Shown: one piece after another, positions 22,909 through 45,978 of the stretch | Position numbering within the stretch: position 1 is the stretch's first letter | Layout: each line of letters opens with the position of its first letter | Assembly (NCBI GenBank): GCA_046704725.1 | Contig: JBJKRI010000005.1 | Span: 1 to 64,000, forward strand | Origin: Candidatus Woesearchaeota archaeon | GTDB lineage: Archaea; Nanobdellota; Nanobdellia; Woesearchaeales; SKIA01 | Reading direction: 5' to 3' | Length of the DNA: 64,000 nt | Translations under genes and position numbers: made by a program | The notes under the pieces: model-generated | What the model was told of the DNA's origin: nothing | The model's input: the letters and a program-made list of their open reading frames with translations, nothing else | Database searches by the model: none

Positions 22909-24435
22909 ATGAGAGTAGCGGCAGGAGCACTCGGTATAGCACTCGCTCTGCTGGTGCTCGTTCCGCTTGTCAACGCCCATGTACAGACCGAGCAGCCCAT
23001 CAGCTTCACGGGCGCGACCCTCTCCGGGAGCCAGGAGACCTGCCTTCTCTCCGTGAAGTCGAACAAGGTGACGCCGACCACCTTGATCACGTTGCGCAGC
23101 GATGCATGCGGTGGTCCCAGCATGTACAATACAGGACTGTTCACTTATGGAAAACGCACGGTGACCAGCGCGAGCGCCGGCGTGCCGGTCACCGGAGCCG
23201 GAAGCCAGCCGGGGTTGTGGGCCTACGGCGTCTACTACACCCCGTTAGGACAGATCCTCCCGTACTTCGACAGCGGCACGGCCTATCAGGACGGGACAAT
23301 CCACACATCCTCATACCCGATACAATCGGCGTCGATTTGCGTGCAGAAGATGCAGCTCGATTTCTCGACGAACACCGGCTATCCGGACCTGAGCAGCTCC
23401 TGGGAATATGAGGACCAGCTAAAATCGTTCTCCTCGTGCCAGAGCGCCATCAGCGCGGCCTCGAACATCCCAGCGTTCGAGGGCTATGCAGCGGACGTGA
23501 ACACGCGACGGACGCAGTACCAGTTCCCCATATTCTGCGGTGACATCAATGTCACGCTCGACCACCCAGAATCGTCGGACTGGGCGCCCTTCATGAAGAC
23601 GTACTTGTACTCGAAGGACGCGACGAAAGGATCGATAGCGCCGAGCGCTCCGAACAATGGCAACTACTTCCACTTCGACTTCACCTACGACCAGACGACC
23701 GGAGAGCTGGACGGCTTCACGGTAGGCGTGGACGACGGCTCGGCCGGAGCGGGAGGGTTCCACTACACCGTTACCTGCATGGATCCGATCAGCCCGGACA
23801 GCAGTCAGAGCGTGTGCGCGAAGGTCTCTGGGTATTCGAACCCGTGGGAATCCGCCGGAGCGCCGTACAAGTGCTGCTACGCGCCCCGCCTCGGTCAGAC
23901 GACGTCCGTGAACGGCCAGACGGAATGGTGCACGTCGAACGGCTGGGACTCGGACATTGTGGACAACATCTGCGATCCGCAAAGCGACGGCACCCTCGCA
24001 GGATCCTCGCTCAAGAGCCTGTACGACTCAACGTCCAAGACCTACAAGTTCTGCTGCAAGCCAGGGGACTTCACGCCGATATATCCACCGGATAACACCA
24101 CAGCGTACTTCTGCACCGGAGGAAACCCGCTCATCACTCCCTTCATCAAGCCCATAACGGATTCAACGACCGGCCTGCAATGGGCGTACAACGGCCAGCA
24201 CTGGCTGGAATGCACGCAAGCCACCGACCGACAAGCGGCAGGGTCATACATATGCGACGGCTCGACGCAGCAATGGAACAGCTGCCAGACGGTGAACGGA
24301 AAGTGCTGCGCCAAAGGCGTGTATGACACGCAGATTGTGGCGGCGACGAGCAGCACGCCCGCGCACACGATCGCGTGCTTCAACGGCTACTACGTGGATG
24401 AATCGAAGGGACCGACGGAGGTGACGATACCATGA
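22909..24435 (+). CDS. Secreted Cys-rich surface protein; first gene of the surface/pilin locus
   Basis: Signal peptide, many CC pairs, TATATAA at about 22878; ATGA overlap with the next gene. Confidence 0.8.
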   Translation: MRVAAGALGIALALLVLVPLVNAHVQTEQPISFTGATLSGSQETCLLSVKSNKVTPTTLITLRSDACGGPSMYNTGLFTYGKRTVTSASAGVPVTGAGSQPGLWAYGVYYTPLGQILPYFDSGTAYQDGTIHTSSYPIQSASICVQKMQLDFSTNTGYPDLSSSWEYEDQLKSFSSCQSAISAASNIPAFEGYAADVNTRRTQYQFPIFCGDINVTLDHPESSDWAPFMKTYLYSKDATKGSIAPSAPNNGNYFHFDFTYDQTTGELDGFTVGVDDGSAGAGGFHYTVTCMDPISPDSSQSVCAKVSGYSNPWESAGAPYKCCYAPRLGQTTSVNGQTEWCTSNGWDSDIVDNICDPQSDGTLAGSSLKSLYDSTSKTYKFCCKPGDFTPIYPPDNTTAYFCTGGNPLITPFIKPITDSTTGLQWAYNGQHWLECTQATDRQAAGSYICDGSTQQWNSCQTVNGKCCAKGVYDTQIVAATSSTPAHTIACFNGYYVDESKGPTEVTIP

Positions 24436-43690: not shown

Positions 43691-45978
43691 GACGCGGACA
43701 GATCTCCTATTTCCCCGTCGTCCTGACGATCGGCGTGACGATCATCTTCGCGCTCGTCCTGGGGCGCTTGCTCGTGGCGGGGCAATTCGACGGCCACCCC
43801 CCAGCCATCGGCGAGAAGCAGGAAGCGGTGCTGCGCGCCTATAGTCGAGCGGATGATATCCGGTTGTACGCTCAGCAGGCCGCGCGGGAGGCCGTGGCTG
43901 AGGCGGAGAAGAGCGGTGACTTCGCAACGCCCATCGCCCAGCGGGCGGCGACGCGTTTCACCGCCCTCATGCGGCAATATCCGTTCGCGAGCATCACTCA
44001 GATGTTCAACGCCAAGCAGGAAGGCGACAGGATCGTCTTCACCTCCGACCAGGATTTGTCAGTTCCCGTCGGCACCGCAGGTGCGGCGACCACCTCTGCG
44101 CCGTCCGGTGCGGGCGTCCTCACGGTCTGGCCGACCGACCATCACGTCATCACGAGCCTTTTCGGCTGGCGCAAGGCGCCGCAGGGAGGGAGCACGTACC
44201 ACCCGGCAATCGACATCCGCGGAGCGGTGGGAGACCCGGTGTACGCCGTGGCCGATGGGACGGCCATCGCAGAGAAGGCGAAGCACCTGCTCCAGCTCAC
44301 CTTGCCCGACGGCTGGACGTGCTGGTACCTCCACATCGACCCGACGGCGAACGGACCTGTCACCGCGGGGGAGAAGGTCGCGACCGTCGGGAACATCCCC
44401 GGCGTGGAGCACCACGTGGACCTGCGCTGCTTCAACGACGCCCTGCTCGGCCCCACACTCGCTGAGAATCTCTGGCCGAAAGACTACGTGAAGGACGGAG
44501 CTGCGACCGGCGACCTGCAATACGCCATCATCTACGACAAGCACGCCTTCGTGGACCCGTACTGCCTGTTTACGCCAGCGCTCCAGCAAGAGGCACTGCA
44601 GAGCGACCTGAAGGACCCGACGCTCGTGGCCGATACGACCGGCTTCACCAAACGGCCGGGCGGGGATGTCGCGACCAAGCTGCAGGACACCTGTCAAGCG
44701 TACGCGGCGCAGCACCTGCTGGCCGCCGCGCAGACGACGAGCGCTTCGACGTCGAGCCCTCCCGTGTCGAACACCGTGCTGCAGAAGACGCTCTCCAACC
44801 TCAAAGACCAACAGGAGCAGGGAAAGAGTCTGTACCAGTGGGTGCAGGATACCGCGAAGAGCGCAGGGGTCGACCCGAACCTTGTCATCGCGGTCATCGC
44901 GCAAGAGAGCCAGGGGGTGATCGACGCGCAAAGTAGGACCGGCGTGCAAGGAGTCATGCAGGTCACCTGTACCACCTTCCAGGACACGTTGCACGTATCG
45001 ACCTGCGACAAGCGCGCCGATCCCGTGCTCAGCATACAGGCGGGGACGTACTATCTCGCGGGCCTGTGGAAGAAGTACGACGGCTACACGCAGCAAGCGG
45101 CATTCACGGCCGCGAACTACAACGGCGGCGGGATGGTGCTGGTCGCCGTCAAGCGCGCAGGAAGCGACCCGTCCTATGACGCCGCGATGGCGCGGTTCAC
45201 CCCGCAGCTCCTCAGCGCAGCCCCCGGATACGCCGGCTGGACCCCGCAGCAGCTCGCCGCGAAAGTGAAGGAGACGACGGACTACGGGAGAAAGGTGTCC
45301 GGGTACTACGGCATGCTCGGCGGAGCGGTGGCTCCCGGCGGAACGAGCCGCACCGATATCGGGACGTACACCTTCGCGCTCATGGTGAGCGCCCCGATTG
45401 ACAAGAGCTACACCGACGTGCTCGACCTGCGAAGCACGCTCTCGAGCTGCGGGACCACCGGTTGCGTGACCCAAGCGTTGCAGCGCAGCGGCGCGACAGC
45501 GTGCTCCGACTACGCGTCAGAACTGCAACGCACCATCACCGAATGTCAGCAGGACCAGGACCAGCACGTCTGTGGCTGCCCGATACCCCTGCCGCCGCTG
45601 GGCGTCGACGCGAAAGTCACACCCGAATCGATACTCATCGGAAAGACCACGACGCCAGTGCAATGGATCGTGCCGCCGGGGGACGCCGTCATCCACGTGA
45701 CCTTCTCCTTGCCGGATACAAACGACCCGCTGCACCCGATCACAGGGGACACGCTCACGCTCTCGGGAACGACGGTCAGGCTCACGGACAGCGCAAACAC
45801 CATCCTGGGCGGCGCTTCCGGGACGCTCGGCACACAGGGCATTATCTACGCGACGAGGCAGCCCGACGGACAGACGCTGCGACTGACGAACACGACGGTC
45901 GGAGCGTGCTTCGCCGGCTATGCGAAAGCCTATTGCCTGGACGGTACGCGCTTCTGGGTGACACAGCAGGTGCCGTGA
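43687..45978 (+). CDS. Pilin-like protein fused to M23 peptidase and SLT lytic transglycosylase domains
   Basis: MRRG|QISYFPVVLTIGVTIIFALVL. M23: WPT..HVITSLFGWR, YHPAIDI, GDPVYAVADG, YLHI, VTAGEKVATVGN, HHVDL. SLT: GVDPNLVIAVIAQES, SRTGVQGVMQV, IQAGTYYL, AANYNGG, ETTDY..KV. Confidence 0.88.
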   Translation: MRRGQISYFPVVLTIGVTIIFALVLGRLLVAGQFDGHPPAIGEKQEAVLRAYSRADDIRLYAQQAAREAVAEAEKSGDFATPIAQRAATRFTALMRQYPFASITQMFNAKQEGDRIVFTSDQDLSVPVGTAGAATTSAPSGAGVLTVWPTDHHVITSLFGWRKAPQGGSTYHPAIDIRGAVGDPVYAVADGTAIAEKAKHLLQLTLPDGWTCWYLHIDPTANGPVTAGEKVATVGNIPGVEHHVDLRCFNDALLGPTLAENLWPKDYVKDGAATGDLQYAIIYDKHAFVDPYCLFTPALQQEALQSDLKDPTLVADTTGFTKRPGGDVATKLQDTCQAYAAQHLLAAAQTTSASTSSPPVSNTVLQKTLSNLKDQQEQGKSLYQWVQDTAKSAGVDPNLVIAVIAQESQGVIDAQSRTGVQGVMQVTCTTFQDTLHVSTCDKRADPVLSIQAGTYYLAGLWKKYDGYTQQAAFTAANYNGGGMVLVAVKRAGSDPSYDAAMARFTPQLLSAAPGYAGWTPQQLAAKVKETTDYGRKVSGYYGMLGGAVAPGGTSRTDIGTYTFALMVSAPIDKSYTDVLDLRSTLSSCGTTGCVTQALQRSGATACSDYASELQRTITECQQDQDQHVCGCPIPLPPLGVDAKVTPESILIGKTTTPVQWIVPPGDAVIHVTFSLPDTNDPLHPITGDTLTLSGTTVRLTDSANTILGGASGTLGTQGIIYATRQPDGQTLRLTNTTVGACFAGYAKAYCLDGTRFWVTQQVP

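Follow-up and report, generated by a model that had tools for sequence, protein, structure and literature searches.

An archaeal operon of class III-like exported proteins ending in a putative modular murein lysin: a candidate filament-like apparatus for use on bacteria

What would an archaeon without murein do with a murein hydrolase encoded at the end of a run of prepilin-like genes? The question is raised by a locus at positions 22909-45978 of a 64-kb window, i.e. the whole stretch of DNA analyzed here (G000:C5:1-64000), from the genome of Candidatus Woesearchaeota archaeon. The locus contains 23 co-oriented genes on the + strand (approximately 23 kb; frames were chosen by high GC content at third codon positions, GC3), designated G1 to G21 with G13b and G14b, and the last of these, G21, encodes a candidate two-domain murein hydrolase behind a prepilin-like N-terminus. 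The explanation held here to be probable on balance is that the locus encodes a surface apparatus resembling a type IV filament, which is used on bacterial partners and has as its last member a modular murein lysin on a pilin-type anchor.

According to Pfam, G21 contains an SLT domain (PF01464; residues 387-483, 63.8 bits against a cut-off of 21.3, E 1.3e-17) and a Peptidase_M23 domain (PF01551; residues 171-237, 30.9 bits against a cut-off of 28.7). In a search against solved structures the SLT motifs E-S (E407-S408), G-x-M-Q-V (here G-V-M-Q-V) and Y-N-G-G aligned with LtgA, and the SLT part aligned with T7 gp16 as well. The zinc/catalytic motifs of M23 enzymes are HxxxD and HxH, and residues H172 (in H172-x3-D176), D176, H216 and H243 of G21 were invariant or nearly so among 21 relatives. 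The AlphaFold model of G21 (40-row alignment; mean predicted local distance difference test score, pLDDT, of 86.4) comprised, in order, helix 2-32, a break, a helical/beta module, an M23 fold, an SLT fold, and a C-terminus made up of alpha/beta and beta-sandwich parts. Foldseek comparison of this model with the PDB returned LtgA, MltE, Slt, MltF, MltC and M23 enzymes (e.g. 9gy1, root-mean-square deviation 2.7 over 115 columns, with the Neisseria gonorrhoeae M23 structure 6muk among the matches), while comparison with viral models returned phage tail lysins, tape-measure proteins and the phi29-type morphogenesis protein. An earlier note on this DNA had placed an M23+SLT protein at the end of the locus, and Pfam matches, motifs, conservation and predicted fold agree in making G21 a credible two-domain murein hydrolase.

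An exhaustive HMMER search with G21 yielded 1564 matches at E <= 0.001, mostly to one domain, and 14 at E <= 1e-30, and 20 full-length relatives aligned from residue 1. Common to the relatives were an IGEKQ-type module, the M23 residues, a Cys-rich C-terminal domain and, in nearly all rows that keep an N-terminal leader, a G or A preceded by one or two basic residues and followed by the helix; the middle domain was SLT in some and GH108 with PG_binding_3 in others. Among the best 150 library relatives, 65 had a class III-like start, 47 of which also had the IGxxQ module. Forty relatives with leader and IGxxQ contained M23 (37), SLT (26), GH108 (13), PG_binding_3 (8), Amidase_2 (3) and a GDSL lipase domain (2). 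As judged from sequence, G21 and its relatives constitute a broad family of putative murein hydrolases on a prepilin-like anchor, the anchor being a family trait. A related-loci search of genome contigs from G21 alone found no relative, a word-index search returned G21 itself and one relative (and, with G10 as query, G10 alone), and no loci were found in metagenome contigs with a narrower, 12-row hydrolase alignment. Eighteen metagenome loci that matched just the GH108/PG_binding_3 part (residues 349-551) were set aside and not used. A second M23 match (53 bits) was observed at G000:C5:260507-260686 in a 90-aa open frame, maybe a fragment or a small protein.

The genes of the locus and its flanks are given below, with lengths in amino acids (aa). 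A class III-like start denotes a short basic leader that closes with [KR][GA] (RAG in G6) and has a hydrophobic helix directly after it; the slash in each leader separates positions -1 and +1. Fractions of 20 refer to a set of further loci, each taken as 20 kb around a match to the G9 family, picked by large contigs only and including none from hydrolase-positive genomes.

21384-22259, + strand: secreted Amidase_3 protein (43 bits); an RNase P p30-like gene lies between this gene and the operon.
22909-24435, + strand: G1, 508 aa, Sec-type signal peptide, 20 Cys; secreted, zero Pfam families.
24432-26048, + strand: G2, 538 aa, Sec-type signal peptide, 12 Cys.
26045-27175, + strand: G3, 376 aa, class III-like leader MRG/Q, 12 Cys.
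27172-30189, + strand: G4, 1005 aa, Sec signal peptide, 58 Cys, weak fn3 match; homologues in genomes G292 and G220.
30186-34598, + strand: G5, 1470-aa type I membrane protein with signal peptide, Cys-rich/Ig-like ectodomain and DUF7107 (35.6 bits).
34636-35220, + strand: G6, 194 aa, class III-like leader RAG/Q; paralogue of G7; 9 of 20 loci.
35287-35862, + strand: G7, 191 aa, class III-like leader RKG/Q; 10 of 20 loci.
35859-36947, + strand: G8, 362 aa, class III-like leader RKG/I; conserved large minor-pilin-like protein; 17 of 20 loci.
36931-37449, + strand: G9, 172 aa, class III-like leader TKG/Q.
37446-37964, + strand: G10, 172 aa, class III-like leader SKG/Q.
38100-38963, + strand: G11, 287 aa, class III-like leader RRG/L.
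38968-39771, + strand: G12, 267 aa, N-terminal helix without the basic-G/A motif.
39755-39934, + strand: G13, 59 aa, class III-like leader RRG/M.
39931-40092, + strand: G13b, 53 aa, MRRG start of weak class III likeness; ATGA overlap with G13.
40130-40408, + strand: G14, 92 aa, class III leader RRA/Q, 6 Cys; candidate major filament subunit; 12 of 20 loci.
40405-40662, + strand: G14b, 85 aa, paralogue of G14; 14 of 20 loci.
40655-40897, + strand: G15, 80 aa, class III leader DKG/Q, 6 Cys.
40923-41141, + strand: G16, 72 aa, N-terminal helix without leader motif, 6 Cys.
41123-41842, + strand: G17, 239 aa, class III-like leader RKG/Q.
41880-42701, + strand: G18, 273 aa, class III-like leader RRG/E.
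42688-43140, + strand: G19, 150 aa, N-terminal helix without leader motif.
43130-43690, + strand: G20, 186 aa, class III-like leader RKG/Q.
43687-45978, + strand: G21, 763 aa, MRRG/Q leader, helix 2-32, IGEKQ module, M23, SLT and Cys-rich C-terminal domain.
46031-47086, + strand: RPA-like single-strand DNA-binding protein, a conserved downstream flank; 17 of 20 loci.

ATGA start/stop overlaps were found at nine junctions (G1/G2, G2/G3, G3/G4, G4/G5, G7/G8, G9/G10, G13/G13b, G14/G14b and G20/G21), and five more gene overlaps measured 8-19 nucleotides. Clear class III-like starts were present in 15 proteins (G3, G6, G7, G8, G9, G10, G11, G13, G14, G14b, G15, G17, G18, G20 and G21), of which 11 have Q at +1. 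A sixteenth, G13b, is weak: it begins with MRRG but has charged residues ahead of the helix. G12, G16 and G19 have plain N-terminal anchors in which the helix is present and the leader motif absent. The earlier note had counted about 24 genes, ten ATGA overlaps and sixteen leaders of the archaeal class III type; each count lies within one of the recount, and the 15 clear and one weak starts support the assignment. The -1 G/A was retained in 6-row alignments of G9 and of G10 and, in the hydrolase alignment, in nearly all rows that keep the N-terminal leader. A crude class III regular expression was positive for 10 of 19 locus open reading frames (ORFs) versus 201 of 2805 ORFs genome-wide (hypergeometric P 1.5e-7); the expression is loose and the genome-wide background contains spurious ORFs, so the enrichment shows merely that the clustering of leaders is not chance. 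Elsewhere, the start of a 6978-aa ORF at G000:C8:15596-36532 passes the same loose expression.

The best-kept N-terminal segments were those of the small G14-type proteins, which are the candidate main subunit; their segment S-L-N-V-I-I-I-A-A-I was nearly identical among genomes with GC contents of 0.38-0.62. Small class III proteins here (40130-41141) and at four other loci (L142, L143, L147 and L149) end in short domains with 4-6 Cys. Defensin-like Pfam matches of G14 and G16 (E 0.004-0.04, below cut-offs) were treated as cysteine-pattern noise. The nearest ESM Atlas clusters of G8 were unnamed Nanobdellota proteins (0.97).

The earlier note had described the four leading genes as encoding large Cys- and Ig-rich exported proteins. 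Sec-type signal peptides and a Cys content of 2.2-5.8%, with Cys counts always even, were indeed found in G1, G2, G4 and G5, but G3, which stands among them, has a class III-type leader, and the Ig-like character is sub-threshold only (Pfam fn3, Big_3_3 and Big_13). As a lead, the nearest ESM Atlas clusters of G5 were Ig-like repeat proteins (0.85). G5 has a transmembrane helix near 1252-1275 and a cytoplasmic tail of approximately 195 aa, and its conserved part (1087-1431, around helix and tail) was found in 17 of 20 distant loci. N-termini like that of G3 also occur on proteins of 671-716 aa (contig C7 of the same genome; loci L144 and L145).

Modelling of two adjacent pilin-like proteins suggests that these two bind one another. 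Q at +1 was invariant in six homologues of both G9 and G10, as were E at +6 in G9 and E at +3 in G10. Complex prediction for G9 with G10 gave a score of 0.68 versus 0.00 for the best of three controls; among solved complexes 58 of 80 attained the mark used for such scores, as did 2 of 110 mismatched pairs, counts that apply only roughly because the 6-row alignments were our own. Between runs, 65% or more of the contacts agreed, the partner pLDDT was at least 75, and the interface lay in the globular parts. The prediction supports binding of G9 to G10 as a putative heterodimer; multimer modelling of the minor pilins had been suggested in the earlier note. The separate AlphaFold model of G10 (6-row alignment; mean pLDDT 59.4) was too poor, and nothing was drawn from it.

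The operon recurs well beyond the source genome. By tblastn, the gene content and order of the locus, bounded by p30 upstream and by RPA downstream, were found again in two genomes of the same genus, one of the same family and one of the same order; more generally, related archaeal genomes share the gene order and the flanking genes (a PP-loop protein and p30 on the upstream side, RPA on the downstream side) at 20-60% identity. In the phylum sample of 401 genomes, the G9 family (6-row profile) was detected in 341, a tally that includes the unpublished genomes G243, G321, G242, G395 and G332, none of which supplied a locus to the analysis. Across the 20 loci, class III-like ORFs on the strand of G9 numbered 4-16 per locus (median 13, sum 246) versus a sum of 27 on the opposite strand, and the recurrent order was the C-terminal part of G5, G6/7, G8, G9, G10, small pilins and then RPA (17 of 20). 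Because the G9 family is widespread and the order colinear in the sampled loci, the operon is judged to be old and vertically kept. Synteny, which the earlier note had proposed to check across Woesearchaeota genomes, is present, and the locus is one copy of an operon conserved through the phylum sample rather than a special feature of one genome.

The hydrolase itself is less constant. Its profile matched 15 of the 401 genomes at E <= 1e-20; seven of nine distant loci matching the profile (GC 0.26-0.55) had the hydrolase at the downstream end of a co-oriented run of class III-like ORFs, and in many relatives a class III ORF of 150-202 aa, corresponding to the G20 position, precedes the hydrolase gene. 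In the 20-locus set, a hydrolase-family match was found downstream on the same strand in 13. Ten terminal large ORFs were scanned, six from hydrolase-matching loci and four from loci without a match, and five of them contained murein hydrolase domains (Amidase_2; Amidase_2+SLT; Peptidase_M15_4+SLT; SLT; NlpC/P60+SLT), all five being among the six from matching loci. Catalytic domains are thus swapped between lineages at the last position, with M23, Amidase_2, M15 or NlpC/P60 paired with SLT or GH108, and this position is an exchange slot for wall-cutting domains that does not always hold a recognizable hydrolase. Murein opening, which the earlier note had made the function of the apparatus, is accordingly retained in part: hydrolases accompany 13 of the loci, but because the other seven gave no hydrolase-family match, murein cutting looks like a frequent add-on and not a core function.

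The earlier note had also held that the assembly ATPase, platform and prepilin peptidase must be encoded outside the window, and candidates for all three were found elsewhere in the genome: five T2SSE matches, three T2SSF pairs (on C4, at approximately 202-206 kb of C5, and on C7) and a single Peptidase_A24 gene (G000:C7:28264-28614, 57.5 bits). Five archaellin-like N-termini (basic, A, then E/I-M-G-x-G-T-L-I-I-F; C4:71249, C5:160365, C6:96899, C6:170416 and C6:171112), together with the T2SSE/T2SSF pair and peptidase on C7, suggest that the organism is motile. At G000:C2:52807-57148 (compare L146:843-5433), a 765-aa T2SSE-like ATPase is encoded beside a 706-aa neighbor with seven transmembrane segments and no Pfam family; just after this pair, at G000:C2:59380-68793, lies a gene for a 3137-aa secreted protein with DUF4215, DUF642, DUF4394, GH2 sugar-binding and PKD domains. 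The ATPase pair is directly upstream of the class III/hydrolase cluster in genome G033, and in genome G200 the ATPase is approximately 1 kb from the G9 homologue. An orthologue of the 765-aa ATPase was found in 395 of the 401 phylum genomes at 54-76% identity (a tally including the unpublished genomes G359, G321, G395, G242, G243 and G332, from which likewise no locus was taken), so its phyletic pattern cannot decide a motor role. As it also lies away from the cluster in the 20 loci, it was set aside as the dedicated motor and kept as a lead only; the pair may be the motor of the apparatus or an unrelated conserved secretion system.

The upstream Amidase_3 protein, whose two profile matches occur in swapped order, is probably not part of the apparatus, as only weak matches were found, in 2 of 20 relatives. 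Two further genes of the window lie apart from the operon: one near the contig start (644-1831, + strand) for a 395-aa SLT-like protein that lacks an obvious signal peptide (SLT 24 bits, E 2.9e-5, residues 210-270), and one at 16594-20247 (+ strand) whose 1217-aa product has a signal peptide and matches Peptidase_G2 below threshold (E 2.3e-4).

In the proposed mechanism, the small Cys-rich class III proteins G14, G14b and G15 would be the likely main subunits of a filament, and G6-G13 with G17-G20 would be minor-pilin-like subunits forming a complex. G5 would serve as a conserved membrane-spanning protein with a large ectodomain, and G1-G4 as lineage-specific secreted adhesin-like proteins. 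Leaders would be trimmed by the single A24 prepilin peptidase and the subunits assembled by an ATPase/platform pair encoded outside the locus. G21 would act as a two-headed murein hydrolase on a prepilin-like anchor, its M23 domain cutting peptide bridges and its SLT domain glycan strands; displayed on the filament or beside it, it would open the sacculus locally upon contact with a bacterium, allowing attachment, feeding or killing. The analysis itself demonstrates the gene anatomy, the domains with their catalytic motifs, conservation and synteny, the exchange of domains at the last position, the missing genes for an own wall and the machinery genes elsewhere; leader cleavage, filament assembly, the position of G21 and the bacterial partner are the parts of this proposal that we infer.

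Several observations weigh against this filament-like reading. No pilin family model in Pfam or NCBIfam reached threshold for the locus proteins (the NCBIfam scan of 10 of them gave no useful family, and the best sub-threshold match was DUF7288 on G10, with 17.5 bits against a cut-off of 27), so the label "pilin" is drawn entirely from N-terminal features, and these overlap with the features of simple signal anchors. No T2SSE, T2SSF or Peptidase_A24 match lies within the window, and no ATPase or platform was found at the locus in the 20 further loci, one adjoining the cluster only in genome G033. In the AlphaFold model of G21, helix 2-32 runs into a break (33-42) and does not continue as one long pilin-type alpha1. 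The HxH motif of M23 reads H-x-D (D245) in G21 and its 11 closest relatives (12-row alignment), with HxH kept in four distant relatives; the activity of G21 is therefore not assured, and Asp245 could act as a metal ligand. Nine M23-bearing ORFs of distant genomes had a class III-like start in just five cases and Sec-type signals in three, and one had the helix and IGxxQ with no leader in the open frame. Five of the 10 scanned terminal ORFs had no Pfam domain and 7 of 20 loci no hydrolase-family match. Finally, genome G013 of the same genus (99% complete) contains the 765-aa ATPase but gave no match to the hydrolase or G9 profile, which may mean either that the entire operon was lost or that the assembly has a gap. 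The lack of pilin models and of a motor gene at the locus, the short G21 helix and the loci without hydrolase also count for a rival in which there is no filament. Class III leaders would then serve export and membrane or surface anchoring, as proposed for the Saccharolobus bindosome, giving a surface layer of adhesins and enzymes, with G21 an anchored bacteriolysin for competition, defense or feeding on wall debris and no fixed host. Secreted archaeal peptidoglycan hydrolases that kill bacteria are on record (PMC12352652), and class III signal peptides on non-pilin substrate-binding proteins are discussed in a 2026 survey (PMC13705601). However, the many small and mid-sized class III proteins are strictly conserved and colinear, and this set, the strongly conserved N-termini of the small subunits and the predicted G9-G10 heterodimer, roughly calibrated as it is, resemble a filament with minor subunits. 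Moreover, searches of the genome for AnmK and NagB found neither family, which argues against use of anhydro-muropeptides via the known bacterial route and weakens a purely feeding role by that route. The rival without a filament is considered unlikely, though it is to be taken seriously.

A variant of the preferred filament-like explanation is a cell-to-cell bridge or a machine for uptake of DNA or cytoplasm, similar to conjugation or competence systems, with G21 as the wall-opening hydrolase and the partner maybe a bacterium. An anchored hydrolase with a glycan cutter and a peptide cutter inside an apparatus operon is the layout of PrgK/CwlT-type enzymes of Gram-positive conjugation, and domain shuffling at the slot is in keeping with it; however, Pfam scans of the locus proteins, with no search aimed at such components, found no VirB4, coupling protein or competence channel, and this variant is regarded as quite improbable. 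A role of G21 in remodelling the organism's own wall for apparatus assembly (FlgJ/VirB1-type) could appeal to the M23 and SLT enzymes that serve assembly of bacterial pili and secretion machines, and to 6muk among the fold matches, and the title of PMC3735123 links a gonococcal M23 protease to piliation. It is contradicted by the genome, which is 1.18 Mb in 8 contigs and 99.7% complete: penicillin-binding protein (PBP) transpeptidase (PF00905) and FtsW/RodA (PF01098), both detected in 10 control bacteria, were not found in it, and its sole Mur-ligase-like match belongs to a family also detected in three control archaea. The lack of transpeptidase and FtsW/RodA points to foreign murein as the putative substrate of G21, and the own-wall role is judged highly improbable. 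Even less credible is a block of bacterial DNA, whether from contamination, a chimeric contig or recent transfer, although M23, SLT, GH108 and amidase domains do typically belong to bacteria and phages. GC content is even along the window (0.59-0.66) and across all 8 contigs (0.60-0.62), contamination is rated at 0.6%, and the leaders are of archaeal type. The uS2 protein of the window was closest to Candidatus Woesearchaeota archaeon records (79% and 73% identity), with more matches titled Woesearchaeota, Nanoarchaeota and Nanoarchaeia, and the window also contains ordinary genes (SufB, dCTP deaminase, MFS transporter, the RPA-like protein and a weak RNase P p30 match). Because of this uS2 affinity, these ordinary genes and the flanks and gene order shared with related archaea, the contig is archaeal and non-chimeric, which removes the doubt raised in the earlier note that it might prove bacterial.

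Conservation of the operon across the lineage suggests that these archaea physically engage bacteria. A wider proposition, put forward tentatively as a possibility that we would not yet call probable, is that most Woesearchaeales and their class carry one conserved organelle derived from type IV filaments whose last subunit is a swappable lysin cassette, i.e. a peptide cutter and a glycan cutter on a prepilin-like anchor, comparable to a phage tail tip. The type of cassette would track the wall chemistry of the bacteria to which each archaeon attaches, and many members would live as episymbionts or predators whose partners are bacteria, not archaea. The operon would then be their determinant of host range. 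For a lineage in which no member has a known partner, an easily recognizable conserved operon offers a concrete handle on the way of life. If the proposal is true, archaeal type IV filaments are extended to a new task, the breaching of a foreign cell wall, and the "scattered pilins" and "large SLT proteins" of DPANN surveys, so far separate oddities, are explained together.

Parts of this picture are already published. SLT proteins have been reported in Woesearchaeota and Pacearchaeota (fam00969, PMC8204110; GH23 genes, PMC9723730), with bacterial hosts or prey proposed, and the main texts of both papers make no mention of pili or pilins. Dark-matter islands of DPANN have been read as diverse pilins (PMC6393860). 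Conversely, the words "peptidoglycan" and "hydrolase" are absent from the main text of the 2026 survey of class III proteins and pilins (PMC13705601), and M23 homologues were noted in four Nanoarchaeia genomes in a paper whose main text contains neither "class III" nor "pilin" (PMC12352652). A link between a pilin operon and a hydrolase slot was not found in the open literature searched, which did not extend to subscription papers, the supplements of PMC13705601 and PMC8204110 or Figure 2A of PMC6393860; within that scope, the SLT proteins and the idea of a bacterial host are prior work, and a conserved pilin operon with a hydrolase slot was not found described.

Among known systems, archaeal type IV filaments (Epd pili of Methanococcus, Aap/Ups pili, the Saccharolobus bindosome) resemble the locus in that a hydrophobic helix follows the class III leaders, Q stands at +1, one operon encodes several minor subunits, and a shared prepilin peptidase is encoded elsewhere. 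They differ in that the subunits here match no known pilin family, no ATPase or platform is present at the locus, and the operon includes a murein hydrolase. In DPANN, ATPase and platform genes have been described as lying together, with pilins scattered (PMC13705601), and the same arrangement is seen here. Compared by domain and lineage alone, G21 resembles the large SLT proteins of DPANN (fam00969) in having an SLT domain in the same archaeal lineage, and differs from them in its prepilin-like anchor, its second, peptide-cutting domain and its fixed place at the end of a class III operon. Woldo/Danwoldo of Halogranum provide an archaeal M23-type enzyme against bacterial murein; these are free secreted proteins with Tat or Sec signals and PG_binding_1 domains, unlike G21 (PMC12352652).

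By layout only, the run of mid-sized pilin-like genes beside small major-subunit genes and large adhesin-like proteins resembles the bacterial tip complexes of type II secretion systems and type IV pili. In these systems (GspH-K; PilVWX-PilY1), minor pilins stand beside small major subunits with a large adhesin. The predicted binding of adjacent subunits (G9-G10) via globular parts is a further likeness, whereas no sequence or profile similarity to the locus proteins was found. Close parallels to the architecture of G21 are the two-domain murein hydrolases of phages and conjugation systems (phi29-type morphogenesis protein, phage tail/tape-measure lysins, T7 gp16, PrgK/CwlT), in which a glycan cutter and a peptide cutter are likewise paired and domains are shuffled among relatives. 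Enzymes such as phi29 gp13, PrgK and CwlT are carried by machines that must cross a cell wall; G21 differs from them in that its host is an archaeon without murein and its anchor is a class III leader.

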